Positions 37,850 to 62,133 of a stretch of DNA of 64,000 bases are shown here, one piece after another. Position 1 is the first letter of the stretch; the number at the start of each line of letters is the position of its first letter. The notes below the pieces were generated by a model that was not told the origin of the DNA, made no database searches, and saw only the letters and a program-made list of their open reading frames with translations. Origin of the DNA: a virus (taxonomy: Duplodnaviria > Caudoviricetes); IMG/VR virus record IMGVR_UViG_3300037067_012889, positions 128,001 through 192,000 of that record; one strand, given 5' to 3'. The position numbers and the translations under genes were made by a program.

Positions 37850-38263
37850 CTAGTGTTTGTGCTTCGCTTTTTCTATTAGGTCTAACACATTATTATATAG
37901 CTTTAGCGATTTCATCTCTTTGGTAGTAAAGAATCCAAGTGATGCAAATTCATGATTAGGTTTCAGCCTACTACAGTCTGTAGAGTCTGTTTTACACGGT
38001 ACAAACGCCACAAATCCTTTACGTTTATCCTTAATTGGACCTGAAATAGAACGGCATTTACAACCAGTTTCTTCTTGTGTCTCCCTGACAGCTGCTTTCT
38101 CTGGTGTTTCTCCGGATTTAATCCCACCCCCAGGAAAACACCAACGGCCCGAGCGATCGTCGTCCGACTTAGATAATCCCAATAGCCATTTATCTCGACA
38201 TTTAACAATACCGACAGCGGCAGTAAATTTATCTAACCCTTCAACCAGTAATCTTAATTGCAT
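37850..38263 (-). CDS. Nudix hydrolase with MQLRLLVE N-terminal tag
   Basis: Nudix box WCFPGGGIKSGETPEKAAVRETQEETG. Confidence 0.92.
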   Translation of the reverse strand: MQLRLLVEGLDKFTAAVGIVKCRDKWLLGLSKSDDDRSGRWCFPGGGIKSGETPEKAAVRETQEETGCKCRSISGPIKDKRKGFVAFVPCKTDSTDCSRLKPNHEFASLGFFTTKEMKSLKLYNNVLDLIEKAKHKH

Positions 38264-38763
38264 TACGAGTTTCCCTTTTTAACTTCTTTAATTTCTTTGT
38301 CTACTAATTCCTTTAAATAGTCATTAAGCGATGCCCAGCATTTTCGCTCATCTGGCTCTATATCATCCAATCCACTATCGTTATTTGGAGAAGTCTGATT
38401 ACCTTTACTACCTAAAAGGTGGAGATTACCTTGTTCTTTATTTGGGATAAAACAGAAATATGGGTTGTGATATTGACTAAGTTCAAAAGCATATCCATCC
38501 CATAACTGGCATCGGAAATAAATCGATGGCCGTTCCCAATCGCCACCACCTTTTCTCATTTGACAATGGAATGTACACTTCGATGATTCCCATTGTTTTT
38601 GCGGTATAGTTATGACTCGCTCAACTATGGTGTCGTCATTTTCAAGACTAAAACTAACACCAAACTCTTTCTTGGCCTCCTTGAATTTTTCATCCCACAT
38701 TGGTTTGGATATAGCATCATATCCAAAAAACTCTTTATCTTCTGTCAACAATCTTAATTTCAT
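38263..38763 (-). CDS. hypothetical protein with MKLRLLTE N-terminal tag
   Basis: 166 aa, TAATG-coupled to the Nudix gene. Confidence 0.7.
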   Translation of the reverse strand: MKLRLLTEDKEFFGYDAISKPMWDEKFKEAKKEFGVSFSLENDDTIVERVITIPQKQWESSKCTFHCQMRKGGGDWERPSIYFRCQLWDGYAFELSQYHNPYFCFIPNKEQGNLHLLGSKGNQTSPNNDSGLDDIEPDERKCWASLNDYLKELVDKEIKEVKKGNS

Positions 38764-38767
38764 TTTA

Positions 38768-39070
38768 CTACCTACTCAAAATTACAATATCGAATATATC
38801 CGATTGTGGACTTGGATATCCATCTACAACCATAAATTCATGAACAAGTGGTGCCGACATAGTAGTACCACATACTTCACGCAATTCTATTGTGATTGTC
38901 GTATTGTCTACTACCTGTAATTCTGAAATTTCTACAGATTCAATATCGCGATCATTGATCGTCTTATGTGGCATTCCGTCGATAAGAATCTGAACTTCTC
39001 GCGATGTAGCCTCTGATTTTTTGAGAACTTCGGGAATGGTTATTACCATATCAATAGTTCCGTTCATCAT
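38768..39070 (-). CDS. hypothetical (beta-rich) protein
   Basis: Start moved to ATG 39070 (GGAG RBS). Confidence 0.55.
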   Translation of the reverse strand: MMNGTIDMVITIPEVLKKSEATSREVQILIDGMPHKTINDRDIESVEISELQVVDNTTITIELREVCGTTMSAPLVHEFMVVDGYPSPQSDIFDIVILSR

Positions 39071-39176
39071 AATCTCCGCAAGGTACGCAAGAATCACAGA
39101 CAAACACACTTATATTTGTTAGGTTATCATTATAAGTTTGATCAATAGTCAAAATTATATGTGGAGAAAATACCAT

Positions 39177-40145
39177 ATGTTGAGTCTCGTAAGAAAACCC
39201 GATGGTAAAAAATGCAAGAGTAAAAAAGAGACTACGTGGGAACCAGAATATCGCACACCAGAACGCGATCTCGACAAACTAATCGACGTAAACGAGCCTG
39301 GTCTACCAGCGATACATAGTGTCAATAAAACATCAACCTTACCCAAGGAATTATCCTGGGGCCACATGAGAGAGGGTAAAACTATGTTATCGTCGACTCT
39401 AGATAAGAAACTCAACAAAGCACTAGAGCCATTGATATCGAACACCAAATTCGATGATGATAATACCCAGCTTGCATTAGAAGAGATGATGCGCATTACC
39501 ACATCGCCACGAAGATTTGACAATCAGATCCAATTCTCGCAATATCTCACCGAGGGAATTATTCTAAATGTCAACAGATTGGTGTCACAAAGCATTGGGA
39601 TCCCACAAGGTGAATATGTTCTATATAACATCACACCAGAAAAGGCGATGTTAGTCCCAACAGACGAAATCACAGTTCAAGAAACCGACTTTAGCAAGTT
39701 ACCAAAAACTTTCGAAATCCACACAAGTAAACTTCTAGGATGTTGGAACAAAATCGAGGGCACCATAACAGAAGCAGATACTGCGAATGTATCTGGAAGA
39801 CCACCGAGACGATTTGGCCACAAAGAGATTGAACAAACATCGCAGTCGAAATACAAGAATGTTCCGGAAGTCGTATCAGCTCTTGAAAGAGCTGGGAAAA
39901 CACAAGAAGAAGTTGCAGACGAAATTGGCGTCCATCCATCTACCGTCAGCAGATACAAACATGCAACGAGTAAAAAAGGTGGTCGAGTCCCAAGTTTAGG
40001 TGCTGCATTGAAGTTGGCCGATGCTACTGGTGGAAATATTGAAGCTATGTTCGGAAATGTTGAGCCGCCGACCAAGCGCAAAGCTACGAGTGGTAGTGGA
40101 GGTGGTCGAAATCCGACATATAAGAGTGGCAACGCGGACAAATAG
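39177..40145 (+). CDS. protein with C-terminal XRE/Cro-type HTH
   Basis: GKTQEEVADEIGVHPSTVSRY...PSLGAALKLA; YLTE and TITE sites upstream. Confidence 0.75.
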   Translation: MLSLVRKPDGKKCKSKKETTWEPEYRTPERDLDKLIDVNEPGLPAIHSVNKTSTLPKELSWGHMREGKTMLSSTLDKKLNKALEPLISNTKFDDDNTQLALEEMMRITTSPRRFDNQIQFSQYLTEGIILNVNRLVSQSIGIPQGEYVLYNITPEKAMLVPTDEITVQETDFSKLPKTFEIHTSKLLGCWNKIEGTITEADTANVSGRPPRRFGHKEIEQTSQSKYKNVPEVVSALERAGKTQEEVADEIGVHPSTVSRYKHATSKKGGRVPSLGAALKLADATGGNIEAMFGNVEPPTKRKATSGSGGGRNPTYKSGNADK

Positions 40146-40215
40146 ATATAAAAATTAAATATCGTTATATATTCTAGATAGTAAATAATATATTATCAAC
40201 ATCCAGGAGTATGTC

Positions 40216-40641
40216 ATGTATATTGAGCCAGTGCCTATAGGTGGAGCATATGATAAATCCTGCACTGTCTTTGAAATAAAGATATATGATCATCTCAACC
40301 ACATAGATCCCGGTGAGTTTGGACTAACCGGAGTACCAAAACTTGATCCGGAAATGTATTATGTCACTAGCGGTGACGCTATTTGCAAAACCAATCAGCT
40401 ACACAAAGATTTATGGTTATTAGTTGGTAAAATTCAAAAACTCGCTGGTAAGAATCCCACAAAACAGCTCACATTATATCTAAAAGCCTTGTATAGTTGT
40501 GCTGTTAAATCGAAAGTACTAATCGATAAGCTCAAAATAGCGAAAGGCGAAGCTATTTTTCTTGAAACAGAATGGCGAGACGGACGCGTGATATGTGTAG
40601 CTAAAAACCCGCGCCCAAAAATTAAGATTGCCGAAATCTAG
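40216..40641 (+). CDS. hypothetical protein
   Basis: AGGAG RBS, 141 aa. Confidence 0.65.
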   Translation: MYIEPVPIGGAYDKSCTVFEIKIYDHLNHIDPGEFGLTGVPKLDPEMYYVTSGDAICKTNQLHKDLWLLVGKIQKLAGKNPTKQLTLYLKALYSCAVKSKVLIDKLKIAKGEAIFLETEWRDGRVICVAKNPRPKIKIAEI

Positions 40642-40661
40642 TCGTTATCAAAAACGATTTT

Positions 40662-41492
40662 TCACTCATATCTCCACGCAATCAACTCTTGTTCAACAAG
40701 ACCTGTAGTATATCTGGGTTGCACACTATGTTGTAAGTCTACGATTTTTGTCTTCGCATCAGTTCCACTGAATTGTTCGACAATAAATGGGTGTGCCTTG
40801 TTAGTATAAATGAATTGCTGACCACTCTTCAAAATACACCCAATTAGTGCTGTCTGGTCTTCTGCTGTGAATTCACCACTATAACCAGTGAATTTCTTCT
40901 TGTCATCATAGTATGGAGGGTCTAGGAAAACCACACATTTCTCACATAGTGACTGTATAGTAGTTATCGCATCGTTTTTACAGATTAAAGTTCCCTGCAA
41001 CGCCGCAGAATCACATCGTATCAATTCTTCATTGCAAATTTCTGGATTTTTGTAGCTTCCTGGCGGAACATTGAATCGGCCCTGTTTATTGATACGCATC
41101 AAACCATTGAAACACGTACGCAATAAAAACATGATTCTAGAAGCACGCATGATGGGATCGGTTGGACTAGATGCTCGTATTGCTCGATATGTCTCCAAAG
41201 ATTGGCCATCTGATTTATGGACATATTTATAATCCGGTTTTTTCAATTCTCTGATAAGATCTTCTGGCCGATCTCTAATTACAATATAAAGATTTATCAA
41301 CTCTGCGTTAGTGTCGGCTATAACTCGATGCTTGAACCTATTATGAACCGTCCAATATAAAGCTCCACCACCAATCATTGGCTCACAATACCCAAGCTCC
41401 ATATCACCGCTTAAGAAATTTAAAATTATATGTAATTCCGAAAGCAGATATGTCTTACCACCAGCCCATTTGATAAAAGGTTTCGGATCCAT
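40662..41492 (-). CDS. dam: Dam-family (D12 class) DNA adenine methyltransferase
   Basis: KPFIKWAGGK, EPMIGGGA, FNGL.R.N..G.FNVP.G, FLDPPY. Confidence 0.92.
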   Translation of the reverse strand: MDPKPFIKWAGGKTYLLSELHIILNFLSGDMELGYCEPMIGGGALYWTVHNRFKHRVIADTNAELINLYIVIRDRPEDLIRELKKPDYKYVHKSDGQSLETYRAIRASSPTDPIMRASRIMFLLRTCFNGLMRINKQGRFNVPPGSYKNPEICNEELIRCDSAALQGTLICKNDAITTIQSLCEKCVVFLDPPYYDDKKKFTGYSGEFTAEDQTALIGCILKSGQQFIYTNKAHPFIVEQFSGTDAKTKIVDLQHSVQPRYTTGLVEQELIAWRYE

Positions 41493-41568
41493 ATTAACCC
41501 AATGTATCCTTCGTGCTATAATGACGTATTTGATGAATGTTAAATACTACACATTAACAGAGGCAACC

Positions 41569-42279
41569 ATGCATCCAGGTTTATATGTTGTGTTCGAGGG
41601 ATCGGATTTCTCCGGTAAGAGTACATTGGCACACATGGTTATGGAGGAACTTCGAAATACCGATCTCAATTGTATTCTCACTCATCATCCCGGATCTACT
41701 CCTCTTGGAAAACATCTGCGTAAGCTCGTAAAAACCCCAGAAGAATTTGACGAGCCTGGCGCTGATCCGATAGTCATCGATAGTATGTCGGCGCAGATGT
41801 TGATGATGGTCGATCACAGCAATTTTATCAGCACCAAATTGATTCCATATCTTGATGAAGGTGGTGTTGTTTTAGCAGATAGATCTAATTACATCAGTTG
41901 CATTGTTTATGGTGTAGCAGAGGGTCTAAAATTAACATCGATCAACAAATTGCTGAGTTTAGTGCAATCGCCGATACCAGATAGAGTCTTCATCATCTCG
42001 AACAGATGGGAAACAATCCAAGAGCGCATGAAGAAGTCTGATCGCACTAAGTCAGACAGATTTGATAATAATGAAAACTTATTACGCCATGTTGGCGAAT
42101 TGTATGATAACCTTCTGCAATTAAGCCCAGAATCTTTAATGATGCTGTCGCGATATGTACCATTAGAGCATATTGTGTATCTCAATGGTGACACACCAGC
42201 CATAGAATTAGCAAAAACAGTATCGCAAAAAATAATACGAATGGCAAATGAGAAATCGGCGAATAATGTCGCCCAGTAA
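41569..42279 (+). CDS. tmk: thymidylate kinase
   Basis: VVFEGSDFSGKST P-loop, THHPGSTPLG, VLADR; start moved to ATG 41569 (GAGG). Confidence 0.9.
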   Translation: MHPGLYVVFEGSDFSGKSTLAHMVMEELRNTDLNCILTHHPGSTPLGKHLRKLVKTPEEFDEPGADPIVIDSMSAQMLMMVDHSNFISTKLIPYLDEGGVVLADRSNYISCIVYGVAEGLKLTSINKLLSLVQSPIPDRVFIISNRWETIQERMKKSDRTKSDRFDNNENLLRHVGELYDNLLQLSPESLMMLSRYVPLEHIVYLNGDTPAIELAKTVSQKIIRMANEKSANNVAQ

Positions 42280-42541
42280 GGCCCTGTAATCGCTCTTTCT
42301 TATATCTTTTGAATTGCTGTATTTTCTTTGCAGCAAGCATTTCCTCATTTGAGATTGGTTTTGCCTCTACGAAGCGTAGGCCCTTGCTACGCAATGCACG
42401 CCTTATCTTATTAAATTCTACGTAGACATTATCTGAACCAATCTCAGTTATAAAAATCTGTATTTTATCATTTGGGTCAACCGCAATGCATCTCCACCAT
42501 CGTAATTGAGACACATCAAAATTATCATTCATGCCATCCAT
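42182..42541 (-). CDS. C-terminally membrane-anchored hypothetical protein
   Basis: C-terminal hydrophobic tail; overlaps the tmk 3' end on the opposite strand. Confidence 0.5.
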   Translation of the reverse strand: MDGMNDNFDVSQLRWWRCIAVDPNDKIQIFITEIGSDNVYVEFNKIRRALRSKGLRFVEAKPISNEEMLAAKKIQQFKRYKKERLQGLTGRHYSPISHLPFVLFFAILFLLILWLVCHH

Positions 42542-42556
42542 AGGAACTGAAATACA

Positions 42557-43063
42557 ATGAGCCCAGAAGGCAGTTTAAATCCAACACTGGTGTTTCCGGC
42601 ATCTGAGAGCGAAATACATGTATATCCGTCAGACTACGTACGATTAGAATTTAAGCGTGTTCATCGAGATGCACGAGTTCCATATCGCAAGCGTGAGACC
42701 GATGCCGGATACGATCTGTTCTCAATCGAAGAAGTCACGATCAAACCACATTCTACTGAAAACATCAGGACCGGTGTTATCGTAGTTTGCCCGAAAGGAT
42801 GGCAACTTCTCATTGAGGGGCGATCGAGTGTATGGATTAATGGCGTCGCGCCTTTTCATGCTGTTATAGACAGCACATATACTGGAGAAATGATGGTTCG
42901 GCTCATGAATGTCAGCGACACTCCGTATCATATCGAAAAACATGATAGGATAGCACAATTCGTTTTACATAAAGCATACAGTGCCGTATTTGTCGAAGTT
43001 GATGAATTCAGCCCTGACTATAATCAAAGAGGAGAAGCTGGTTTTGGATCATCAGGCCGATAG
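42557..43063 (+). CDS. dut: trimeric dUTPase
   Basis: DAGYDL, GRSS, VIDSTYTGE, DRIAQ, RGEAGFGSSG. Confidence 0.95.
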   Translation: MSPEGSLNPTLVFPASESEIHVYPSDYVRLEFKRVHRDARVPYRKRETDAGYDLFSIEEVTIKPHSTENIRTGVIVVCPKGWQLLIEGRSSVWINGVAPFHAVIDSTYTGEMMVRLMNVSDTPYHIEKHDRIAQFVLHKAYSAVFVEVDEFSPDYNQRGEAGFGSSGR

Positions 43064-43095
43064 CATTCGAACTTACAACACATGAGCCGTAAAAA

Positions 43096-43392
43096 ATGCT
43101 TGTAGTAATTTATGGAAAAGCAATCGACGATAAAGAAATAGGGATATATATAGACGGTGTCTTCTTCGGTGGTATAGCTGAAAATCAAGAAGATGCTGAA
43201 CAACTAGCCAAAGAATGTGTAAATTATACCGTTGGTGGAGTTGCAATTCCCAAAATAATTCCAATCGGCCGTAAAAATTTACACGAAATATTCAAAGAGG
43301 CAAAAATTCGCTTCGACAAAATCGAGAGAGAAATGATTGAAGCTGAATCGATCATACAAGCTAATCAACAGAGATGTAAAAACAAAAAATAG
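43096..43392 (+). CDS. hypothetical protein
   Basis: 98 aa ORF. Confidence 0.6.
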   Translation: MLVVIYGKAIDDKEIGIYIDGVFFGGIAENQEDAEQLAKECVNYTVGGVAIPKIIPIGRKNLHEIFKEAKIRFDKIEREMIEAESIIQANQQRCKNKK

Positions 43393-43481
43393 CTCTCCGA
43401 CCTTTTCTCTTGTATCTTCTTTACGCATTCGCTACTTCGGCACATCGGAAGCCATAACGCAAAACAATCTAAAAAGAAACG

Positions 43482-43748
43482 TCACACGGGCTTCTTGTGA
43501 TATTTGTAATATATAATCATTATCAGCCATATAGTGTTCGCTACTGCCAAAACCGCCCCACCGACAAGAGAAACAAATTGTTCAAGGTGCGGATAATAAT
43601 ATAAATTCCAATATCCCCAAGTAACAAAGAATAATACAGCAGCCCAAGAAACACCTTTTACTTCTTTATCGCGATAAAGAGTTTTGATGTGCAACCATAT
43701 GAAGTATCCACCAAAAATCTCAAACAAACCATTGATAATGTCGGCCAT
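43482..43748 (-). CDS. PQ-loop/SemiSWEET-like 3-TM membrane protein
   Basis: IKTLYRDKEVKGVSW...WG.W..YY...AN pattern, 88 aa. Confidence 0.6.
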   Translation of the reverse strand: MADIINGLFEIFGGYFIWLHIKTLYRDKEVKGVSWAAVLFFVTWGYWNLYYYPHLEQFVSLVGGAVLAVANTIWLIMIIYYKYHKKPV

Positions 43749-43749
43749 G

Positions 43750-43935
43750 CTATATAAGGTTGGCGCGTTGTTTGAATTGCCGAGTTGCCCTAGCTAATGC
43801 GACATATTTACAACATCCAAAACCTTTGGCGTGTATGCATCTTTGGCCGTTCCAACCACCTTCTACACGGCATATCCAACGCGGCTTCTTACCATTATAA
43901 CAATAGAAGACTGCACTAATGTATGGTCGATCCAT
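43750..43935 (-). CDS. small hypothetical protein
   Basis: 61 aa filling the gap in a minus-strand operon. Confidence 0.4.
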   Translation of the reverse strand: MDRPYISAVFYCYNGKKPRWICRVEGGWNGQRCIHAKGFGCCKYVALARATRQFKQRANLI

Positions 43936-43940
43936 TATAT

Positions 43941-46370
43941 CTATGCCAATTCAAGCTGGCCGTGAGTGTACTCACTAAAAGCACGATCATATCCTCGCAA
44001 TACAATACGTCTTAACTTACAGCCTGGAAACATTCGCATCCCAAATTTTCCCATGGGACTTTCTCTTACGATTGGAAAATAAGGTGTCGAAATTGCTACT
44101 GGCGTTGGCAATATTCCACTTGCATCAGTACTTGGTGGTATAAGCAATCCATTCCACCATATCCATACCTGATTACCACGCTGCATGATCTCTAGCTCGT
44201 TCCAATATTCGACGCTACCTGTTGTTTCCGACGATATACCAAATCCACCATCATACACGACAAATCCCGGCTGATTCACTGCCGGAATATCTCCACTACC
44301 ATTATATGTGGCGTCTTGAATATAAGTGCCGCTGACAGCATATCCTGGCGTTAGGCCACGTACAAAGTCATCTGCTACGTCGATTGTATCGTCTTCGTAA
44401 TCAATACCGACGTCGAGAGTCCCAACCTTGAAATATAGTTCAACCTTGCCCGCAGACGTCAAATTGAAGTTAAGTCTGACACACGGTCCACTATATTCTT
44501 GATGCAGAATCTGTGCAATCTCGGAAATAAGACCAACAAATGGGCTTGAACCGATTAATGCCACAACGTCTTCGGCATGCAAGGAACACATCGCTTTATA
44601 TGTGTAACTCCATGTATGCCCAGCATTTAAGCCGGTCAACAGCCGCAATGTTCCAAACTGCGGCAATTCCTGGAAACTAGCACCACGAAGTAGTACGTAA
44701 TATCCTGTGCCACCGGTAAGCGCTCCGGTTTCAACGACATTCAAGAAATATTCTTCATTTCCGTCGATTGGTGCATTCAACAAGATGTCATATGGAGGAT
44801 AGACGCCAGTTTCTGACGGCCGCCCAATGGCTATATTAGCTAAGCACGAAGAACCAATATGTCTATTCCATAAGCAAACTGGACGTTGCCGATAAGTTTC
44901 TGTAGACGATTGCCGTTCTACACGCAGCCCAGGAAGTGATGTATCAATCGATGCAATATATTGATCATTTACATCGAATATCATAATTTCAGAACCGGAC
45001 GTGCCACCAGACGCTGATTCTGTCACTTCCGTCAATAAATATGGCGGATCAATACCCGTCATACCCCATACTTTGTGCTCGAAATTGCGAACGTCGGTGA
45101 CAAGCTCAAAATCGAAGGTAGCAGTTGGTGTCGATGGTTCCGTTCTGGCTGTCAGCTGCGTACCAAATTCAACACATCCAACCTCAGACCAAACACTACC
45201 GGCATCAAGGCTTGGTTTACGATTAAAAACGTATTGACGAATTGGTACATCGTTAACAGAGCCAACTTCGAAGAACCACATATCGATGACAGTACCGATT
45301 GGAAGAATTCCAATCGTCTTATCTAATACTAGTGCTTTGCTGTTGACTCCACCTTCTGGATAATCGTATTGCCAGACGTTTGTCGCTATAAATGAAGTAT
45401 TATCGGCGACAGTTGCACCATGGACGTCCCACCATTTACAGACATACTGGTTTGTTGCCAATACCTGCGTAGTGTAGTCTGTAATGACTGCTGCACGCTT
45501 TGTAAGTAGGTTACCATTATATAACAAACCACCAAGAATACCTGGTGTTGATACCATGTCCAAATCGAAACGAATTTGGTCACCGTTGGCATCACTTCCC
45601 ATGAACCACACGCATTCAGGCGTTGCACCGGCACCGGGAGTAAACGCCCAGCCAACATTAGTCGATGTGCTATTCGTCGCTGAACGTTTCAAAACCAATT
45701 CATATTCACCGACACCAGGAGCAACGGAATCATCATATCGTTTAAAAATCAGCGATGGATATGTAGTCTTCGTATTGAGCGACGCATCCGGGTTTGATGT
45801 GTTGACTATCAAACTCTCCGGCATGAGATAAACCTTCATCTCACCATACGTGCTAAGTCCAGGTAATTTACCAGCACATGACGGCGGACGTATAGTACTT
45901 GTTTCTGTAGAATCTTGCACCCAATAAATAGATGCACATGTTTCGACATTGCAACTCAACGGAATTGGAGAATCGACGGTCCATCGAATAACATTGCCAA
46001 ACCGCTCGATCGATATAAATTCACTTCCTGCGGCTAAGATTACGTCTCCCTGTAGCCAACCACCATCATCGGGGAAACCACCGCCTTGGAATCCAACGAT
46101 GCCAAGCCGCATCTGAGTCAATGCATCCAATTTGCATTTGTCGTCCGCAGCCATCAAACCCATTGTGTCACATGTAGCAGTTGGTATTGGGTCAGACGAG
46201 ATATGGCTTGTTCCATGTATTCCTATTTGGCTGATTTGACTATCTCGACCCCACAACGATCGAGTTTCAGCGTCATAAGCAAACCCACTAATTATATCGT
46301 CAGGACCGCTTACCTGAATCCATTGCTTATCAACTAATGAAGAATGGAGCGGTATTTTCGTTAGTGGCAT
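43941..46370 (-). CDS. virion structural (baseplate/fibre) protein
   Basis: HG.SH...DPIPTAT..TMGLM.A.DK.KLD tail-fibre-type motif; 809 aa; GGAG RBS. Confidence 0.7.
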   Translation of the reverse strand: MPLTKIPLHSSLVDKQWIQVSGPDDIISGFAYDAETRSLWGRDSQISQIGIHGTSHISSDPIPTATCDTMGLMAADDKCKLDALTQMRLGIVGFQGGGFPDDGGWLQGDVILAAGSEFISIERFGNVIRWTVDSPIPLSCNVETCASIYWVQDSTETSTIRPPSCAGKLPGLSTYGEMKVYLMPESLIVNTSNPDASLNTKTTYPSLIFKRYDDSVAPGVGEYELVLKRSATNSTSTNVGWAFTPGAGATPECVWFMGSDANGDQIRFDLDMVSTPGILGGLLYNGNLLTKRAAVITDYTTQVLATNQYVCKWWDVHGATVADNTSFIATNVWQYDYPEGGVNSKALVLDKTIGILPIGTVIDMWFFEVGSVNDVPIRQYVFNRKPSLDAGSVWSEVGCVEFGTQLTARTEPSTPTATFDFELVTDVRNFEHKVWGMTGIDPPYLLTEVTESASGGTSGSEIMIFDVNDQYIASIDTSLPGLRVERQSSTETYRQRPVCLWNRHIGSSCLANIAIGRPSETGVYPPYDILLNAPIDGNEEYFLNVVETGALTGGTGYYVLLRGASFQELPQFGTLRLLTGLNAGHTWSYTYKAMCSLHAEDVVALIGSSPFVGLISEIAQILHQEYSGPCVRLNFNLTSAGKVELYFKVGTLDVGIDYEDDTIDVADDFVRGLTPGYAVSGTYIQDATYNGSGDIPAVNQPGFVVYDGGFGISSETTGSVEYWNELEIMQRGNQVWIWWNGLLIPPSTDASGILPTPVAISTPYFPIVRESPMGKFGMRMFPGCKLRRIVLRGYDRAFSEYTHGQLELA

Positions 46371-46418
46371 ATGTGTTCTCCAAATGAAGTCATTTATATC
46401 TTTGGGCTGAAAATAATC

Positions 46419-48218: not shown

Positions 48219-48505
48219 AGAACTGACGCGGCTAAAACTCTGTTTGGAATAAAATAAGTCTCTGCTCCAATAATTTTCACCTCGCCAAACCCACGCGATT
48301 CAAGTGCATATAACAGTTGTTCTATATTCGATGTATCTCCGAATTTGTTGAGATTTCTAATATCATCAATCGATATACTACCGGTTGGCTGCGACATTCT
48401 AGATATCACAACGAATAACTTCTTCGCGTCGTATGAAAGTTTATTAAAAAGCTTAGCTTGAGTACCTTGCTTGTTCTCGATAATTGGTATCCTAATAGTT
48501 CGCAT
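48215..48505 (-). CDS. small winged-helix-like protein
   Basis: LSYDAKKLF...ISIDDI...LLYALESRGF. Confidence 0.5.
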   Translation of the reverse strand: MRTIRIPIIENKQGTQAKLFNKLSYDAKKLFVVISRMSQPTGSISIDDIRNLNKFGDTSNIEQLLYALESRGFGEVKIIGAETYFIPNRVLAASVL

Positions 48506-48526
48506 AATTTATCTACCCATACAACA

Positions 48527-48563
48527 AAGGCGACAGGCGGCATTAATCCGCTCCTGTCGCCTT
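48527..48563 (-). terminator. rho-independent terminator
   Basis: aaggcgacagg...cctgtcgcctt stem followed by a T-rich tail on the minus strand, just after the 48585 stop. Confidence 0.75.
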
Positions 48564-48584
48564 CTTATCGGTCAAGGATTCCTA

Positions 48585-51125: not shown

Positions 51126-51139
51126 ATGATATTTTTGCG

Positions 51140-51685: not shown

Positions 51686-51686
51686 T

Positions 51687-54600: not shown

Positions 54601-55721
54601 GTTGTAAGATTGCCCGTTGTAGGATCTGTAAACTGATATGATGTCGAAGAACCACCTTTTACAGTAACAGCTTGCGCAGCTTGTATACGCTGTTGTTCTA
54701 TGTATTGTCTCGTTTCTGCGTTTCGAGTTTGAGACTCACAATATTCGAGTGCACAACATAGAGCTGCTTTCTGTTCATCAAACAAACCAGCCATTATCGA
54801 CAGCCAAAATTGAACAATATTCTCACAATCGCTCTTAATAGCGGCCACTTCACGATTAAATTCGGTTTCTATAGCGCTTAGTATTCCAGATATGTCAATA
54901 TAATAAACTTGCTGCGAATTACTATAGCATATATCTGGAAGCCACGTTATAATAGCGTTCGACGCGGTGATTGGCAACGCAATGAGCCAGTTGCTATTTA
55001 TAGTCGATGTCAACCTCAACTGCGTCGGACAGGCATCTGGGTTACCAATTATTGATCTTGTTACTACTAGATAATTTTCGGTTTCACTAATTTCTTCTGT
55101 TGTTATCGATGTAACAGCACGAGTTTCACTAGAGCTAATTCTTTCTAGCGATGCCGATTCTGGTTGTATCGTCAAGTCAAATGATGCATTGGCACCTGCG
55201 TCACCAGCTGGACCATCGGGGCCAAATGCCAAATTATCTTGTCCAGCTGGACCAGTTTCACCTTTATCACCTTGAGCGCCCTGTGCTGAACGTACAACGA
55301 ATTTGCCACTATCAATCATGTACTGAAAGAAAGCACTCGTGTCGATAGTGAAATCAAAGGAATAAGTATTTTGATGGACTTGCCTGGAAATGTTTAATGC
55401 TGTGCTAAGCTGTGCATGCGTATCTATCTGTACATATTCATCACCCGCTATTAAGGCTATAGTACCGCCAGTAAAAGAATATGCATAATCGGCCACGCTA
55501 ATCGTAGCTTGCGGTGGCGGAACAATAAGGCCATTTAATTTGTTAAAATCGTCAGACGACATCAATCCTGGTGATGATATCGTCGCCAATGATACTGTGC
55601 CACCTTCCTGCTTATGCCAGACATTCAAAGTGCCATCGTAGACATAGCTTAAACCATCTTCGACTACAACTGTGTCGCCCGTCTTCGGATTTTTCGGAAA
55701 AGACATATTATTGTGGCTCAC
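51687..55721 (-). CDS. large tail fibre-like protein with short collagen segment
   Basis: FPKNPKTGD..., ATISSPGLMSSDD, GAQGDKGETGPAG; beta-sandwich-like middle domains; 1344 aa (ATG 55706 also possible). Confidence 0.7.
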   Translation of the reverse strand: MSHNNMSFPKNPKTGDTVVVEDGLSYVYDGTLNVWHKQEGGTVSLATISSPGLMSSDDFNKLNGLIVPPPQATISVADYAYSFTGGTIALIAGDEYVQIDTHAQLSTALNISRQVHQNTYSFDFTIDTSAFFQYMIDSGKFVVRSAQGAQGDKGETGPAGQDNLAFGPDGPAGDAGANASFDLTIQPESASLERISSSETRAVTSITTEEISETENYLVVTRSIIGNPDACPTQLRLTSTINSNWLIALPITASNAIITWLPDICYSNSQQVYYIDISGILSAIETEFNREVAAIKSDCENIVQFWLSIMAGLFDEQKAALCCALEYCESQTRNAETRQYIEQQRIQAAQAVTVKGGSSTSYQFTDPTTGNLTTVTNEAINTTAQSIVIDGNPRQSGKSVVNTTVMGSACGTGFGASNIHNLPNNQDPVGGSACIPGIVLSSDGTALKYDECPPGFIPRYVKRDAVLTASVSAVPTREVPADYSVALDVPETGSGSANIYQGSIYGKTTPGVNLYLPPGISLARKLAVNAYRSNNPTTSSELRVTVTGTPLSLCKSVTVYVKSTSGTTLAYGQTNADGDIYFKNLSSLEQYNVFLEKSGCLFAPESFSLVQPTTLQIAQLQSTVTTGVTTTPIQQIVTCSSGTNVLVVTVVGSPEAINATWISVRYYSTGYTLCSAYAGTSTTNQGEIVFTGIPNGLWIVYAGTDDTTETDPYYYEVDQPCSPVANPISQQAIELRSCKTVQFIARTDGAQNLARMSFVVYDKLKIASNSSSWVLESSIPAELIVPGDARFESLVKQQIVSDPNSQISLSEALSAFSSKESVVIKIESDAKLKICYTDGFGGDYASALQSDGNKFYDKLFNGIYNICIINDSGVSSSLDIEVTTQNVKFIQGAGDGWSNTLIQSDNKIIAAQGPAEIWWLQIRVEHPRSLQQPYSSSCGAVGPRSSRTDRRFCRELPNGTGSILSRDFVIGDGSISTWYTSRCNAWTVPDAIKITIDSPFAIDDLIMCRVAHNTYSGGFNIENGHSAQIIIEQLEPVSIEPGQSTDSIGGNGYRCTILGWNSSDCVGDVANFGSVIATAKCDNWSLDGIWVIAGIEVKFKARAVENLLQDDSVELTLDVDENNAGFFKGSTSELSKGEYVVDITDCCFRSGEQYTGHVEIEYQDVNGKTTKRFPNLGAFTDSDVARSNYRGLTIEINHQGGQVGARLVSPVLLDGSGKISVRFTTKESFVRDESDVLSFEDTCAISYAQVKLMENLHLTQNIGVVIDAAGQDYIIIHQHIDGIQACTDKYKDPCFAWPTLDGLHFVGVPDSGVVFFKRISQLETVVKSAIEDVDIGIILFPIIA

Positions 55722-56232
55722 TTTGACCGAGAAGTACTGGCGGTATATGTCTCCAAATTCTCACACGGACGCTACCGACTGAATTACAAGGCGATGTCAA
55801 TCTTAATCTGTGTGGGACAGTAAATTCCATATAAAAACAATGCTTTAGATTGGCCATGTCAATAAATTTAAATGCTTCTGCATTCGAAGCCTCAATTTCT
55901 ATTGGATAACTGACAACAGTCCACTGGTGGCCAACATTGCTCTTCCATTCAATTTTCATCCCGCGTTTACCGCCGACAACAAAAACAGCGGGGTCTCCGT
56001 TCAACAACAAAAAGGCACCACTTATATATTTAACTATATATCCGCCTGGCGGCAATAATAGCGATGTCAAACCAGATATATTCCTATTATATATATCAAC
56101 AGACTTTGGGGTATTAGATGGATTGCAGGGTATGTCTATTGCACCAAAATCAATTGAAGAAGAATCAATATACTCCGGCCCAAACATACTAACCGCTATA
56201 GACATTGATTCACCGATTAAGGACTGCCGCAA
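55708..56232 (-). CDS. putative structural protein
   Basis: LPPGGYIVKYISGAF resembles the C-terminal module of 51687..55721 (LSKGEYVVDITDCCF). Confidence 0.5.
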   Translation of the reverse strand: MRQSLIGESMSIAVSMFGPEYIDSSSIDFGAIDIPCNPSNTPKSVDIYNRNISGLTSLLLPPGGYIVKYISGAFLLLNGDPAVFVVGGKRGMKIEWKSNVGHQWTVVSYPIEIEASNAEAFKFIDMANLKHCFYMEFTVPHRLRLTSPCNSVGSVRVRIWRHIPPVLLGQSEPQ

Positions 56233-59200
56233 TCAGAACATGGGATTGTGGTGCTAGCTACTGTTTCGCACATCGTACTTCTATAACTACTCCACCAAGT
56301 CTCATCTCCGACATGGAATGTAGTATCGTTATCCTTATTTAAGAAATATGTCGTTACTGTGTTCATGGCCTGTAGCCATCTACCATTATACCCCATCTCG
56401 ACAACCAATGGGTGTTTATACCCATATGCTGTGAAACCCGATGGAGGGACTACACATTGCAAAGCAAGAACGGCACTATTAACTTCATCGGACATCAAAA
56501 ATCCAACATCAGTCTCTGCTGTATCGACCGAGTCGGCAACTCTTGGGCCTATCCATCTGCCTAGTGTTGTATCGTAATATGAGAGAGACGACGTCTGATC
56601 CACCTCTACACCATGAGTAGTATTGTTATGCTCAGCGACTGCTTTATTTATCCAATATGTCAGAGATGGTTTCATAGATTGAGTAGTATCAAGCAGAACA
56701 GCTACCAAATCAGGGCACAGTGCTCCATTGTTAGTCATTTCATTATAAAAGTCCATTATATCTGTCGCAGTCACTCTCTTAACACCAAAACCATTCCAAG
56801 GTAATACTTTATGAGTTATAGTACCTCTGCTGTCTTTTGGGAAGCTACCATCTTCAACAGATGTATCGATATTAGTTCCCCACGACGTATCTGGTAGTAT
56901 GTCTCTCTCGTCCTGTTTAAATTCGTGTGTCTTATCAATAATCCAACCATTAGTCTTCGAACCATCTGCTAGCGTATACTGATCTGGTCCACGATCAGTT
57001 TGCTCTGGATAGCTTGGCGATCCAGGATTCGCTAATTGCAATATCCCCACAGTGACATATTGGCTGTTACATAATGAGCTAATCCAAGTATTCCATTGTA
57101 TCTTATCATATGTATAATTCGCGTACCCAGTATTATAGCCAGAGCCTTCATAACTTACATAGCCATCATTTGTTGTTATACTTGGATCGCAGTTAGATTC
57201 ATCTGTTATTACTAGAATCATCATTTGATATGCTGCGGTCGGAATATATGTTGGTTTTGGCATCCAGTAGTACAATAATTGCTCAACAACGCCAACCGCG
57301 CGTCCAAGCCATCTTTCAGCGGCATCGATTGTCGATCTAACATATAGAGTTGGGAACAATATTGATTGCTTAGCTGGCGATACGTACTGCCAACCCCATA
57401 AATAAATATTGCTTGCAACTTGCGTGATATATCCACTTATCGGAGGTGGTACAGCAAGTTCACCAGCCTTATTAGAACCAACATCCACTACATCAGTTCG
57501 AATGATCAGGCTAGTGTAAGTTTTTTGTAACAATGACACGCCAGCTGAAATAATACCATCAACCTTATCTGGGTCGCCAAGCGATCCCGAAGTGTCGACG
57601 ACTATATAAAGTATTGTTGCGGCATAATCGTTATCATTTGTTATGGCCTTAAATGCCGCCATCATATCATCGGCTGTAAACGACGGCGTATTAGTTTGAA
57701 CGATGGTGATTCTATTTCTGTCTGTATCTCCTGGCCATGCCGAAGTACTTGGTTTTAAAGATCCTCCTAACGGCGACGCACCAGCATAGCCCTGTGGTTG
57801 TAATATGCCTAAACGAACCTTATTGTCGCTACCATTGAGTGCAGCAAGAGAATCCTTCCATTTTGCTAAATCAAAATCCCAAGCTGTCATTCCGGAAGGA
57901 ATACCAATTGGTCCACTGACACCATCGGGGCCTTTATATCCATCATAACTATAAATCGGGCTCGCCTCGTCAGTTATACACATGATAACTACGTGGTCAG
58001 TACCTGGGACAGTCGTCGTAGGACACTGATAACATAGATATCTGCTAGCCGTAGTCGTAGAATCTCTCAACCATCGATCGTCTTGGTCATGGTCAGGCGA
58101 TGATGAACTAATAGTTGAAACAAAGCATACATCTGGGTATGCTATTTGAAGCTCAGCAACAGCATCATTTAATGCACTCTGCTCCGACAATATGTCAGAC
58201 GAGTCGATGCTCATCGCTTTCGATTTGAATAATATGTTGATTTGGTTCGGGATAAACTCTCCACCACACAGCCTTATTGGATCAGAATCGTTGTCATATG
58301 TCACATTTGATAGCATCTTCTCAACAAATGTGACAATATCGGCAGATGTTATTTTAGGGCTTTGTTCTGGTAACAGATGATAAAATGTTTCCGTCCTCAT
58401 AGAATCATACGGTAACGTACAATCCGCACATTTCATATCGCGTTCGTCACCATAATATGCATCGCCGATTTTAGGTATCTGTAACAAGCCGAGGGCAACG
58501 ATCTGGTTCGCAGTCAAATTACCAATAAATTTTTCCCACTCAGCTTTATCGTTATTATAATAGTTAACAATAGTCAAATCGACATCTGGAATGCCAGTCA
58601 CATACACCGGATTGGCTTCATCTGTAATAATGACCAACATCATTCGATATGGCAGCAAGCATTTTGCTGGATTTGTCGGATCGAACGACGCAAGAGATGA
58701 ATATTTCGACCGAGAAAGCATAGTAGTGTCAGACGAAATATCAGTAGATGTTGTCGATGTTGCAGTAGTCGTCACACCAGTTGCACCCACTGGTGCTGGT
58801 GTTGGTGTCGAACCTGAATCTACTATCGGAATATTCACCTCTATTTTTAAGACTACCGCTGTATCTGCAGTATGCGTCGTTGGAGACGTATAATCTACGC
58901 CTCTTGTCACAGTCCAAACTGTGGTACCATAACCGGCTGTCACGAGCATATGTTCGGTACCAACAATAATAGTATATGGGCCTGTCGTTGGAAAATTGGT
59001 TGCTGAATCGATTGTTATTGTTGTATTTGCTATTGTTATATCGGCCGATAAAAGAGTATTGGCCACACCTTGCGAACAATCAGATGGCGCAATCCCTAAA
59101 CAGAACTCTATTGGCCTTTTGAATTCACATTGGGCAACCTGCTGAGCAATCGATGATAATACCTCACGTGCAGCTGCATCTTTCGTTTCGATGAATGACT

Positions 59201-60374
59201 TCATCTGAGCAAGCCACGTATCTTGGAAAGAGACAAGTTTTGACTTATAAGCATTAACAACAACTGTAATAAAATCAGACAGTTTTGTCAATTCTATTGA
59301 TGTAGTATCGCCCACTTCTAAATCTGCTGGCATCTTTACCAATAATATGTCTGCTGTATCCGCATTTGATAATGGATCTCCACTAGGAATCGACAGGCTC
59401 CAATCATCGAGTGTAACATAATCATTACCATTCTCGGCGACCGTAGGATATATAAGTGCTCGCTGTGTTGGTTGTGCATATATCTGATCTGCAGGAGCAG
59501 TATTAGATGGGACATTCATCTTCGCAGTAGTATAAGACATCTGTCCAGCAGAGCCATTCATCTGCAAAGAAACAACTGCGGTATCAACAATATTAGTCGA
59601 GTCAACTACCTTGATACCACTGAAAGTATAGGCTGTAGTGGCGTCGGCTCCAGTATCACCTTTTTCGCCAGCCGGACCGTCATTAAAACCATCTGTACCG
59701 GCCGGACCAGTAGCACCAGTCTCGCCCTTCTTACCTGTAGGCCCAACAACTTCCAGACACAGCGCATCGATAAAATTCGTGCTAAGAGAAAACTTTATGC
59801 CAGCCAAATTCACGCCAGTGGGATCATCTGGTAGAGGCTGGCCAAGATAAGGATATCCATTACTATCAATGCATTCGATCAGCAAACTATCACTGTGTAA
59901 CTTGATATCGCCGCTGACTAGACCAACACGATTGCTTTGCGATCTAATTATTGCATTTTGATCAGTGACGATTCCAAACGCACCAGCTACAATAGGGATA
60001 GAATCTAAAAATCGCTTATTTTGCGAACTCAGTAAGCCTGTCGTATTGACATCGGCTATAGGATAACTTGTGGAGGTACCAATACTAACCCAAACACTCA
60101 GATCGGACGACCAGCGCCATCTAACTAAATTACTATCTGTCCATATTTGGCCGTCTGCCGGATACTGCGGAAGTTGCACAGGAGTGGCATTGTTCTGTAA
60201 TGTGTTGGTATTTATCGTCCCAACATCATTCCATTTTGGTCCGGTGGCACCGGTAGCACCGGTGGCACCAGTAGACCATTGCCAGCTGACGAGATTTCCA
60301 TCGACCCAAACCTGGCCAAGAGTTGGGCTAGATGGTGCTGGATTTTTTGCTACTGGATTTGTGTGTGTAGACAT
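56217..60374 (-). CDS. large tail fibre-like protein with collagen segment and three vWA-like modules
   Basis: N-terminal region paralogous to 51687..55721; GPTGKKGETGATGPAG; 3x ITDE...GILQ-type modules; VVDTSGS. Confidence 0.7.
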   Translation of the reverse strand: MSTHTNPVAKNPAPSSPTLGQVWVDGNLVSWQWSTGATGATGATGPKWNDVGTINTNTLQNNATPVQLPQYPADGQIWTDSNLVRWRWSSDLSVWVSIGTSTSYPIADVNTTGLLSSQNKRFLDSIPIVAGAFGIVTDQNAIIRSQSNRVGLVSGDIKLHSDSLLIECIDSNGYPYLGQPLPDDPTGVNLAGIKFSLSTNFIDALCLEVVGPTGKKGETGATGPAGTDGFNDGPAGEKGDTGADATTAYTFSGIKVVDSTNIVDTAVVSLQMNGSAGQMSYTTAKMNVPSNTAPADQIYAQPTQRALIYPTVAENGNDYVTLDDWSLSIPSGDPLSNADTADILLVKMPADLEVGDTTSIELTKLSDFITVVVNAYKSKLVSFQDTWLAQMKSFIETKDAAAREVLSSIAQQVAQCEFKRPIEFCLGIAPSDCSQGVANTLLSADITIANTTITIDSATNFPTTGPYTIIVGTEHMLVTAGYGTTVWTVTRGVDYTSPTTHTADTAVVLKIEVNIPIVDSGSTPTPAPVGATGVTTTATSTTSTDISSDTTMLSRSKYSSLASFDPTNPAKCLLPYRMMLVIITDEANPVYVTGIPDVDLTIVNYYNNDKAEWEKFIGNLTANQIVALGLLQIPKIGDAYYGDERDMKCADCTLPYDSMRTETFYHLLPEQSPKITSADIVTFVEKMLSNVTYDNDSDPIRLCGGEFIPNQINILFKSKAMSIDSSDILSEQSALNDAVAELQIAYPDVCFVSTISSSSPDHDQDDRWLRDSTTTASRYLCYQCPTTTVPGTDHVVIMCITDEASPIYSYDGYKGPDGVSGPIGIPSGMTAWDFDLAKWKDSLAALNGSDNKVRLGILQPQGYAGASPLGGSLKPSTSAWPGDTDRNRITIVQTNTPSFTADDMMAAFKAITNDNDYAATILYIVVDTSGSLGDPDKVDGIISAGVSLLQKTYTSLIIRTDVVDVGSNKAGELAVPPPISGYITQVASNIYLWGWQYVSPAKQSILFPTLYVRSTIDAAERWLGRAVGVVEQLLYYWMPKPTYIPTAAYQMMILVITDESNCDPSITTNDGYVSYEGSGYNTGYANYTYDKIQWNTWISSLCNSQYVTVGILQLANPGSPSYPEQTDRGPDQYTLADGSKTNGWIIDKTHEFKQDERDILPDTSWGTNIDTSVEDGSFPKDSRGTITHKVLPWNGFGVKRVTATDIMDFYNEMTNNGALCPDLVAVLLDTTQSMKPSLTYWINKAVAEHNNTTHGVEVDQTSSLSYYDTTLGRWIGPRVADSVDTAETDVGFLMSDEVNSAVLALQCVVPPSGFTAYGYKHPLVVEMGYNGRWLQAMNTVTTYFLNKDNDTTFHVGDETWWSSYRSTMCETVASTTIPCSDCGSP

Positions 60375-60424
60375 AGGGTGACCTTTTCCTTATATTTCAC
60401 CCAATATCTACAGTATCGTGATAA

Positions 60425-60589
60425 TCACAACTGCCGACGCACAAATCCTATACACACCAGCCAAATTATGGCTGCTATGATGATGGATTGTATATTATTA
60501 AAGCGATATCTTATCAGCTCAGCAATACCAATATACGCAAAGACCAGTAGCAATGCTGAAGCAATCATGGTCGCCCTGGTATACCGCAT
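60425..60589 (-). CDS. small two-TM membrane protein (not in ORF track)
   Basis: MRYTRATMIASALLLVFAYIGIAELIRYRFNNIQSIIIAAIIWLVCIGFVRRQL, 54 aa, starts 1 nt after the 60591 stop. Confidence 0.5.
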   Translation of the reverse strand: MRYTRATMIASALLLVFAYIGIAELIRYRFNNIQSIIIAAIIWLVCIGFVRRQL

Positions 60590-60590
60590 A

Positions 60591-61034
60591 TCATTCGGCA
60601 TCGAGCTTATTCAGTTGATGTGCAAATGCCATGATGGCACTGTTCGGACTGCCATGCTCTAAGATATGATCGCCAAGAGCAATGCAAAAATCAACATCGA
60701 GCAATATTGGTACATAATCGGCCATCACCAAAAATGCGCCGAACTGAAATGGATTCTTAGATGGCTTTGATGATCCATTCGAATGAGTATGATCTTGAGT
60801 AGCTTCCATTTTAGAGGGGGCTCTGCTTGTTCGCATTGAAGCTTGTTCCGAAGATGTCTTACCATATGGAATTGCTGTGCTCATATCCAATTCCTCTATT
60901 ACCTCTTGGTTCTCGGAGCAGGTCTTTTCATCTAATTCCTCTGCTCCTTGGTTTTTAGAACAGGTCTTTTCATGATTGGTAAGTCCTGATCTACTTTTAG
61001 CCGTCTTACCACAAAACTTGCAAACTAATTCCAT
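60591..61034 (-). CDS. C2HC zinc-finger protein
   Basis: CKFCGKTAKSRSGLTNHEKTC. Confidence 0.7.
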   Translation of the reverse strand: MELVCKFCGKTAKSRSGLTNHEKTCSKNQGAEELDEKTCSENQEVIEELDMSTAIPYGKTSSEQASMRTSRAPSKMEATQDHTHSNGSSKPSKNPFQFGAFLVMADYVPILLDVDFCIALGDHILEHGSPNSAIMAFAHQLNKLDAE

Positions 61035-61106
61035 TATCGACTTTCTAAAATAAGGTGATACCTACAATAATAACTCACATAGAGTTAAGCGTGCAAAAAT
61101 ATCTAT

Positions 61107-61361
61107 ATGGAATCATTCTTCGAAGAATTAGAAGTTGTAAAAGCCGGTAATACACTATACCAAAACTGGTTGGATTATGCTTTATCATTTACGAAAGAAG
61201 ACATACGAGAAATTATTGAAAATGGTTTAACATACCAAGCAGACAGCTTACGATCTATGATACGTGAATTAATCGCTGGACAACCTGTACCGAAGACATT
61301 GCATCGTAAGTTAGACATAATTCTAGTCGCATCTAGGCGACAAGCAAATCAGTTAAGATAA
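61107..61361 (+). CDS. hypothetical protein
   Basis: 84 aa, ATG 5 nt after CAAAAATA. Confidence 0.55.
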   Translation: MESFFEELEVVKAGNTLYQNWLDYALSFTKEDIREIIENGLTYQADSLRSMIRELIAGQPVPKTLHRKLDIILVASRRQANQLR

Positions 61362-61423
61362 CGGTTAAATACGTACTACATTTGACTGTCTTGACAATTT
61401 GCAAATTTAGCATCACGTTGATT

Positions 61424-62119
61424 TCATCGGTTTATGGCATTTCGTACAAAATACATCAGATGAGCATACTGCTGTGGTATCTTCTTGCGTTCTCTTGCCT
61501 TCCATTCTAATGCAGATGCTTTTTTATGTGCATCATTATAATTGTGACCATTATCTAATATTTCAGCTCGTTCGAAAAATTCATGCAAAGCTACGAATGG
61601 TAGTTCGCTCTTATGTATCGCAATATCTAACCAGATCTCATCAGTAGGAACCCAATCGTATGCGCCATGATTTCCGCCCAAACAGAAATCTACCTTATAT
61701 TGATCCCTGACTGCTTCGGCATTTATTAAATAGAAACGTACACCAGATATTATTCCAAGATCGAGCTGATAAATTTCTTGATCTGGCTTACCATATGGGC
61801 CGTGCTTCGACGGTAGTGCCTTTGATCGTTCTGCTTTTTCTGCCCGTATACCAGTTTTATAATCATCGTGAAGCATCCCAACAACCAAACCATAAATAAC
61901 ATATGGTAGTTCGTCACGAGATATGCTATCTTCTATCCATCCTTCATTTTCTGGTATTTGGCTTATAAGCTGGTGACTAGCCGATTCGTTAAATTCTTCA
62001 AAATCTGGGCTTATTGAGCGTATTTGTTCGCCGTTCACAAGATAGATAGAAATATTACCAAAACGTTTAAGCGGTTGCTTTGTAATTCTAGTGTCTTCTG
62101 ATAACAATCTTAATTTCAT
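61424..62119 (-). CDS. internally duplicated zincin-like protein with MKLRLLSE tag
   Basis: Two copies of YL[VI]N.E.[IV]R...E.W...I...ELP[YF]V; second copy has HEFFE...YNDAH. Confidence 0.6.
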   Translation of the reverse strand: MKLRLLSEDTRITKQPLKRFGNISIYLVNGEQIRSISPDFEEFNESASHQLISQIPENEGWIEDSISRDELPYVIYGLVVGMLHDDYKTGIRAEKAERSKALPSKHGPYGKPDQEIYQLDLGIISGVRFYLINAEAVRDQYKVDFCLGGNHGAYDWVPTDEIWLDIAIHKSELPFVALHEFFERAEILDNGHNYNDAHKKASALEWKARERKKIPQQYAHLMYFVRNAINR

Positions 62120-62125
62120 AATATA

Positions 62126-62133
62126 TATTTATA
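62126..62133 (-). promoter_or_regulatory. TATAAATA late-promoter-like element
   Basis: Exact T4 late consensus 6 nt before the ATG of the MKLRLLSE gene; no SD. Confidence 0.45.

Follow-up and report, generated by a model that had tools for sequence, protein, structure and literature searches.

The stretch of viral DNA considered here (the window; 64,000 nucleotides, bases 128001-192000 of the 363,885-bp single-contig IMG/VR record IMGVR_UViG_3300037067_012889) raises a simple question: why should three otherwise unrelated open reading frames (ORFs), which encode a Nudix hydrolase and proteins of 166 and 231 amino acids (aa), begin with almost the same eight residues? A preliminary description of this DNA had reported the starts MQLRLLVE at window position 38263(-), MKLRLLTE at 38763(-) and MKLRLLSE at 62119(-), all of which were confirmed, and had proposed that they send their carriers into the phage head. 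Using the whole genome (labeled G000; 43% GC, completeness estimate 100%) and its relatives, we characterized this leader, or tag, the consensus of which is M-[KRQ]-[LI]-x-x-[LI]-x-E. By analogy with phage T4, we consider that the 8-residue leader is probably a T4-type capsid-targeting and processing signal, and assign this reading a probability of roughly 0.65.

Occurrence and limits of the leader

A scan of G000 with the pattern ^M[KQ]L..L.E identified four further ORF starts outside the window, compared with 0.063 matches expected in the whole gene set (Poisson P ~5e-7). When Arg was also allowed at position 2, nine tags were found, i.e., three in the window and six elsewhere (Table 1), against ~0.09 expected. 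In a six-frame search of G000 for M[KRQ]L..L.E, 9/9 matches lay no more than 22 codons after an upstream stop and none was internal. The motif is thus specific to N-termini, with an enrichment at ORF starts of ~100-fold. The mature proteins are basic in six of the nine tagged genes (pI 9.3-10.6).

Relatives of G000 were found by searching with its capsid protein, and four of these (G001, G002, G004 and G005) were fetched whole. Each contains five to eight tagged ORF starts. Among called genes, N-terminal M[KRQ]L..L.E was counted seven times in G000 (0.085 expected), five times in G001 (0.089 expected) and four times in G005 (0.108 expected). In total, the five genomes yielded 37 matches to the tag pattern, which represent more than 25 families; outside the tag itself, BLAST detected no similarity between them. 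Starts of the MKL... type are common, and one unrelated phage family begins MKLRLLKE, both of which might favor chance, or else common descent of the carriers as whole proteins (paralogy). Such explanations are effectively refuted by the excess in G000, by the same excess in four other genomes and by the lack of similarity between families beyond residue 9.

In ~1.1 Mb around the capsid genes of 80 relatives, we gathered the ORF starts that fit M[KRQ][LIF]..[LIM]. Glu was present at position 8 in 33 of the 109 starts, several-fold above its frequency elsewhere in those proteins; in a set of 54 non-redundant tags it was present in 100%, corresponding to a 16-fold enrichment. A position table of these 54 tags revealed the preferences at sites left free by the search pattern, namely S, R or K at position 4, L, T or M at position 5, and S, H, T, F or Y at position 7. 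Position 9 was G, S, D or A in 37/54 tags and composition was near background from residue 10, so that the signal ends sharply one residue after the Glu. Furthermore, the whole tag (residues 1-8) lies outside the fold in an AlphaFold2 (AF2) model of the 231-aa protein and outside the Pfam match in the Nudix hydrolase.

The finer details of the tag were found to differ between genomes. In G002, 7/7 tags have Ile at position 6, where 28 of 29 tags elsewhere have Leu (Fisher P 1e-6). An aromatic residue, His or Cys occupies position 7 in 11/13 tags from G004 and G005, as compared with 2/24 of those from G000-G002 (P 6e-6). Orthologues take the tag flavor of the genome in which they reside: the Nudix protein starts MQLRLLVE in G000, MRLSLLTE in G001 and MKFELILE in G002, while the corresponding starts for the 166-aa protein are MKLRLLTE (G000) and (V)KLKEICE (G002). 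Given that these details are common to unrelated proteins within a genome, and not to their orthologues elsewhere, the flavors imply that one trans-acting reader per genome would recognize all of its tags.

Could the conserved entity be the DNA rather than the peptide? It had been suggested that the tag DNA is conserved even at synonymous sites, as expected of a copied cassette. The 17-nt pattern ATGMAATTAAGATTRYT does occur three times in the window, compared with 0.26 copies expected, and 0/100 shuffles reached this number. Moreover, two window tags are identical over 17 bases, TTA is the Leu3 codon in 7/9 G000 tags as against 24% genome-wide, GAA encodes the Glu in 9/9, and the 5' end of the tag mildly favors A/T-rich codons. 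The synonymous-site conservation holds only in part, for these shared bases and for Leu3. Across the tags and their relatives, however, Leu is encoded by TTA, TTG, CTT, CTC, CTA or CTG, and Glu by GAA or GAG, and the copied cassette was not borne out. Since the Leu codons vary and the flavors exist at the amino-acid level, selection appears to be mainly on the peptide and not on a copied piece of DNA.

These data also bear on the explanation that what the ORF starts have in common is no protein signal, but belongs to the mRNA or to translation initiation, or stems from the recent copying of a DNA cassette. The identical bases and the codon bias described above are in its favor, as is the fact that several tagged genes have no obvious Shine-Dalgarno sequence. 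We nevertheless regard this explanation as very improbable, given that the amino-acid pattern is kept while Leu and Glu codons vary, that the upstream regions have no motif in common, and that the lineage flavors (Leu to Ile at position 6, an aromatic residue at position 7) are protein-level features. A homologue of the 166-aa protein, P0016, is informative in this respect. At the protein level, its MLLTE|E junction is internal and follows an extra 85-aa domain, homologues of which are free-standing in G000 and G001. The internal junction of this candidate fusion fits a putative cleavage joint better than it does a translation-start signal.

Head machinery and the putative reader

The preliminary description had pointed to a gp21-type prohead protease as the enzyme to look for. 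This protease is present in G000 at genome positions 24821-25612(-) (Peptidase_S77, PF03420, 74.6 bits, E 1.4e-21). The 263-aa protein could be aligned with the T4 gp21 structure 5JBL (E 2e-14) and possesses a His in EFDHP and a Ser in GISSRG, which we take to be the catalytic residues; the deposited 5JBL chain has Ala at both positions. In G002, the prohead protease ORF (L155; 108292-110214(+)) is 640 aa long, with a ~370-aa insertion between two blocks homologous to the G000 protease. From its sequence, this insertion looks like an intein or an inserted domain.

G000 also encodes a gp23-family major capsid protein (PF07068, E 2.6e-78), immediately upstream of which lies a coiled-coil scaffold-like gene (genome 225034-225744(-)). 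Its identity to the capsid proteins of GenBank phages does not exceed 36%, the top match being an uncultured 595-kb phage. In IMG/VR, a relative of the capsid protein is encoded by 156 stretches, with 72-96% identity among the matches listed (80 of the 156), and several of the records concerned are 340-410 kb in length. The clade is a large, uncultured, distantly T4-related group of huge phages.

The [LI]-x-E motif with which the tag ends was also detected in this machinery. An [ILV]-[TSA]-E junction is located in the N-terminus of the capsid protein, just ahead of the conserved core, and is kept across ~30 relatives. The G000 scaffold contains nine [LI]xE sites in 236 aa (P 0.0007). Within the scaffold family, the density of these sites averages 3.9 per 100 aa, as compared with 1.0 genome-wide and 1.55 predicted by the family's own composition (2.5-fold), and three sites are conserved in 26/33 sequences (alignment A3). 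As the tag has the same ending as the capsid junction and the enriched scaffold sites, the head machinery is probably its reader. In addition, the scaffold N-terminus, MDKIKxLL[EQ]K, is similar to the tag, a resemblance which suggests that the tag may mimic a scaffold contact. Prediction of a complex between the scaffold (A3) and the tagged 55-aa protein (A4) returned “no answer” with a score of 0.00, a result that weighs neither way on binding.

Several tags are situated close to the head genes. In G000, the gene for the tagged 55-aa basic protein lies immediately upstream of those for the scaffold and the capsid protein. A paralogue of a canonically tagged protein, with a longer leader that ends MLLTE|D, is encoded between the protease and the scaffold in G002. 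Many of the tag-like ORFs collected around the capsid genes of relatives are directly downstream of the capsid gene.

If the leader functions as in T4, the hydrophobic N-terminal part (L3, position 5 and L/I6) would dock the carrier onto the scaffold core during head assembly. The gp21-family prohead protease would cut after Glu8, with Leu/Ile as the P3 residue and Glu as P1, and the mature protein would remain in the capsid with the DNA and probably enter the host at infection.

A variant of this scheme is that the tag does load its carriers into the prohead and is cut there, but that these carriers serve in assembly or in the core, as do T4 gp67 and gp68, and are degraded or expelled rather than delivered to the host as effectors. 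Consistent with this, the tagged 55-aa protein adjacent to the scaffold gene and the G002 paralogue between protease and scaffold occupy the positions of T4 core proteins, and the scaffold itself starts with a tag-like sequence. An intact Nudix enzyme and a globular 231-aa protein are, however, unlikely structural core components. Moreover, the tagged set turns over fast: G000 and G001 have just five tagged families in common, even though their capsid proteins are 96% identical, and in a sixth family, that of the 148-aa protein, the G001 orthologue has a tag one residue shorter (MRLLLSE). Because such turnover is typical of accessory cargo and not of essential assembly parts, we judge the variant to be decidedly unlikely.

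The leader might instead be a recognition peptide for another trans-acting factor unrelated to the capsid, e.g., a modifying enzyme of the radical S-adenosylmethionine (SAM)/SPASM type, a chaperone, an N-degron adaptor or some other sorting machine. Indeed, concerted evolution of the tags reveals the existence of a shared reader but not its identity, and the loss of Glu from some 231-aa orthologues (see below) would be in keeping with such a factor. In addition, a radical-SAM/SPASM-like gene with CxxxCxxC near its N-terminus and a Cys-rich C-terminus (G000 26829-27632(+); G001 228029-228850(-)) is a conserved convergent neighbor of the tagged 148-aa gene in both genomes. This gene, however, adjoins only 1/9 tagged genes. 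Its homologue in G002 is weak (25% identity), and G004 and G005 possess no close one, although all three genomes are tagged; the enzyme was for these reasons given low weight. The tag also ends in the very protease motif that marks the capsid junction and is enriched in the scaffold, and some tagged genes lie within the head module. We therefore think it unlikely that the reader is a factor of this kind.

A number of findings weigh against the capsid-targeting reading itself. Residue 8 of the 231-aa family is Glu in close relatives, but N, D, T or S in distant ones (e.g., MQLAALHN), which a Glu-specific protease should not cut. One 87.8-kb contig (L187; JGI 3300014204) encodes a 231-aa homologue with the Glu-less start MQLAALHN together with a 71-aa protein that keeps MKLQKLSE. 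Given that Asp at the P1 Glu position of the T4 signal blocks processing while still allowing targeting (PMC9026906), the loss of Glu would be compatible with capsid targeting, yet it is a warning. Most tagged genes, including that of the Nudix protein, lie outside structural modules, and k-mer enrichment upstream of genes did not define a late promoter class for the tagged genes. The clade leader has 8 residues as opposed to 10 in T4 and, by eye, has just the M-K start and the [LI]-x-E end in common with it. Finally, MKLRLLKE starts a family from unrelated, non-T4 phages, so that an N-terminus of this sort can arise in another context.

Candidate cargo proteins and their surroundings

Coordinates of the tagged genes are listed in Table 1. 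The PF00293 match of the Nudix protein (57.5 bits) covers residues 13-117. When compared with the superfamily pattern G-x5-E-x7-R-E-U-x-E-E-x-G-U, the catalytic box, G-x5-E-x7-RE-x2-EE-xG, was found to be intact; it reads GGIKSGETPEKAAVRETQEETGC in translation. The closest solved chains are 3ees, 3i7u (Ap4A hydrolase) and 1mut (MutT), the first of which is an RNA pyrophosphohydrolase of Bdellovibrio. The mature protein has a pI of 9.3. It had been proposed that a packaged Nudix enzyme could destroy nucleotide alarm signals at entry; an action against alarm nucleotides is speculation. The top PHROG match was phrog_15528, which is annotated as a portal protein and in which profile positions 519-628 of 794 correspond to the Nudix domain. 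Nudix domains thus seem to be fused to the portal in some phages and, in light of this family, a virion-associated Nudix may not be unprecedented.

An adenosine-deaminase-family gene (window 36909-37847(+); PF00962, E 5.9e-22) lies tail to tail with the Nudix gene, and a Dam-type N6-adenine DNA methyltransferase gene (window 40662-41492(-)) is located 2 kb from it. In the GenBank phage collection, no match was obtained to the DNA of the Nudix and 166-aa genes, or to an 809-aa protein of the window.

The stop of the 166-aa gene overlaps the Nudix start, suggesting that the two genes form one operon. No family was found in Pfam or PHROG for either the 166-aa or the 231-aa protein. Five relatives of the 166-aa protein were identified, and homologues start MKLILLNE, MLLSE or MTFREFVE. 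Its AF2 model was poor, with a predicted local distance difference test (pLDDT) score of 53 and residues 1-18 unstructured, and a protein atlas search gave no usable match. The ~80-aa domain that precedes the MLLTE|E junction and the 166-aa cargo family in P0016 was also encountered elsewhere (window 4269-4637(-), G000 19862-20584(+), G001 93807-94055(+)), either free-standing or as the N-terminus of a 240-aa protein. The domain may represent a second type of propeptide, of greater length.

The 231-aa gene is the last in a run of three, after genes for a 70-aa protein and a 99-aa sigma-region-4-like protein. Twelve relatives were found, and in their alignment (A1) every row has M1, while at least 90% have L3. 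The AF2 model has a pLDDT of 78, with residues 1-9 disordered and the fold beginning at ~residue 14. The protein had been described as zincin-like; its invariant positions read H-E-F-x-E-R...A-H, and not HExxH. Foldseek returned no match to the model, while the matches given by VIA-align were weak (best Z 4.4), with zinc metallopeptidases accounting for many of them. The L187 contig is syntenic with window positions 51-63 kb, having the 231-aa homologue and then two proteins of ~1,330 aa.

Table 1. Tagged genes of G000 and their leaders
Feature	Position	Strand	Remark
Leader tag MQLRLLVE, codons 1-8 of Nudix gene	window 38240..38263	-	translation
Nudix hydrolase, 137 aa, candidate cargo	window 37850..38263	-	Pfam NUDIX PF00293, E 1.9e-15
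Leader tag MKLRLLTE of 166-aa gene	window 38740..38763	-	translation
166-aa protein, candidate cargo, conserved Cys/His positions	window 38263..38763	-	no known family
Leader tag MKLRLLSE of 231-aa gene	window 62096..62119	-	translation
231-aa protein, candidate cargo	window 61424..62119	-	no known family
Tagged ORF	genome 28099	-	148 aa
Tagged ORF, Nudix	genome 166263 (window 38263)	-	137 aa
Tagged ORF	genome 166763 (window 38763)	-	166 aa
Tagged ORF	genome 190119 (window 62119)	-	231 aa
Tagged ORF	genome 193711	+	71 aa
Tagged ORF	genome 226188	-	55 aa
Tagged ORF	genome 284580	-	151 aa
Tagged ORF	genome 284846	-	87 aa
Tagged ORF	genome 305777	+	84 aa

The preliminary description had assigned a broader toolkit to the head. 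The helix-turn-helix (HTH) protein (window 39138-40145(+), HTH_3) and the sigma-region-4-like protein (window 62129-62428(-)) do exist, but both are untagged, and no domain resembling an ADP-ribosyltransferase (ART) was detected in the large window proteins; hence, nothing places these three in the head. Similarly, the proteins at 19444, 34445, 39177 (also given as 39138), 46419 and 48585 had been said to be punctuated by [LI]xE sites, the density of which proved not to be significantly above the background of 1.0 per 100 aa (P 0.09-0.66). When the motif was required to be [LI]xE[GSDA], the 48585 protein reached an uncorrected P of 0.008.

Upstream elements were surveyed across G000. The T4 late promoter TATAAATA was rejected as a general promoter, with only four of its 26 copies in the genome lying within 150 nt upstream of gene starts; one copy is found 14 nt before the 231-aa gene. 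A sigma70-like consensus, GTTAAY-N17/18-TGCTATAAC, is present throughout G000 and is dense at 5-130 kb and 205-213 kb, with examples in the window near 2908- and 41514+. The sequence TGCTATAA has 58 sites in G000, 28 of which are no more than 200 nt upstream of a gene start. These sites probably mark early transcription units dependent on the host RNA polymerase. The octamer GTATTTAA, which may represent another class of promoter, has 29 copies, with 21 located no more than 200 nt upstream of a gene start; a divergent pair (window 62668(-) and 62682(+)) lies ahead of the operon that ends in the 231-aa gene. In the k-mer analysis, neither the sigma70-like nor the GTATTTAA element marked the tagged genes as a class, and the start context “CATATG” was not enriched.

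An exact scan of IMG/VR with the tag DNA pattern returned only one family, composed of small proteins unrelated to the cargo, in ~38-kb non-T4 phages. On the IMG/VR contigs L008-L013 (34-37% GC), one of which is a complete 38-kb genome, an 83-87-aa family starts MKLRLLKEWNGK, which resembles the tag although its setting is unrelated; these small phages have no gp23-type capsid gene.

Known systems and implications

The capsid-targeting principle of T4 is reportedly due to Mullaney and Black in 1996 and is said to have been textbook knowledge since. The T4 capsid-targeting sequence (CTS) is carried by IPI, IPII and IPIII, which are internal proteins, and by Alt, and is cut by gp21 (reviewed in PMC9026906, PMC3012670, PMC8442874). 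Its ten residues, MKTYQEFIAE, are sufficient for packaging, with targeting governed by residues 4 and 7, and processing by the Ile and Glu at residues 8 and 10 (PMC9026906, PMC8442874). The protease gp21 itself has an N-terminal LIE-9 site (PMC9026906, PMC8442874), gp22 is cut at many sites (PMC5694885), and T4-related phages carry diverse CTS-bearing proteins (PMC9026906).

T4 and the present clade both have short N-terminal leaders on unrelated, mostly small basic proteins, both leaders end in the gp21 site [LI]-x-E, and both phages possess gp21-, gp22- and gp23-type machinery. The cargo set is variable among related phages in both cases and, in T4, Alt provides a precedent for an enzyme as cargo. 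In contrast, the clade has four to nine tagged genes per genome, which are dispersed over 350-400 kb, a candidate Nudix cargo and lineage-specific tag flavors. The machinery is homologous to that of T4, whereas the leader peptide would be analogous and not homologous.

In phiKZ-like giant phages (phiKZ gp175, SPN3US gp245, 201phi2-1), a gp21-related protease similarly cuts after a Glu that follows a short motif, and the N-terminal propeptides, which belong to head and ejection proteins, have been inferred to target proteins into the prohead (PMC5694885, PMC9026906). Their motif is S/A/G-x-E, however, as opposed to L/I-x-E here, and most of their propeptides exceed 100 residues. Furthermore, these phages form a separate lineage without a recognized gp22-type scaffold.

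The advance of the present analysis is in scope and cargo and not in mechanism, the latter being already known from T4. It is possible, albeit doubtful, that the clade fills its huge capsid with a fast-changing set of enzymes by means of an 8-residue address that mimics the scaffold. The RppH/Ap4A/MutT-like Nudix protein, the catalytic box of which is intact, would then be injected with the DNA and, ahead of any phage gene expression, would act on nucleotide signals or on the 5' ends of host RNA. In the same tentative scenario, the tag flavors (Leu or Ile at P3, a small or aromatic residue at P2) would reflect co-evolution of address and reader, which could prevent the exchange of cargo between co-infecting relatives.

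Provided that the leader acts in the T4 manner, a simple search pattern would list the proteins that are probably packed in the capsids of this widespread 340-410 kb environmental clade, with the genome-specific flavors of the tag representing a natural experiment on the co-evolution of address and reader. The more than 25 families, nearly all of which are of unknown function, together with an intact Nudix hydrolase, would constitute a catalogue of candidate anti-defence or host-takeover proteins. If this is true, the tagged proteins would come into play as soon as infection begins.

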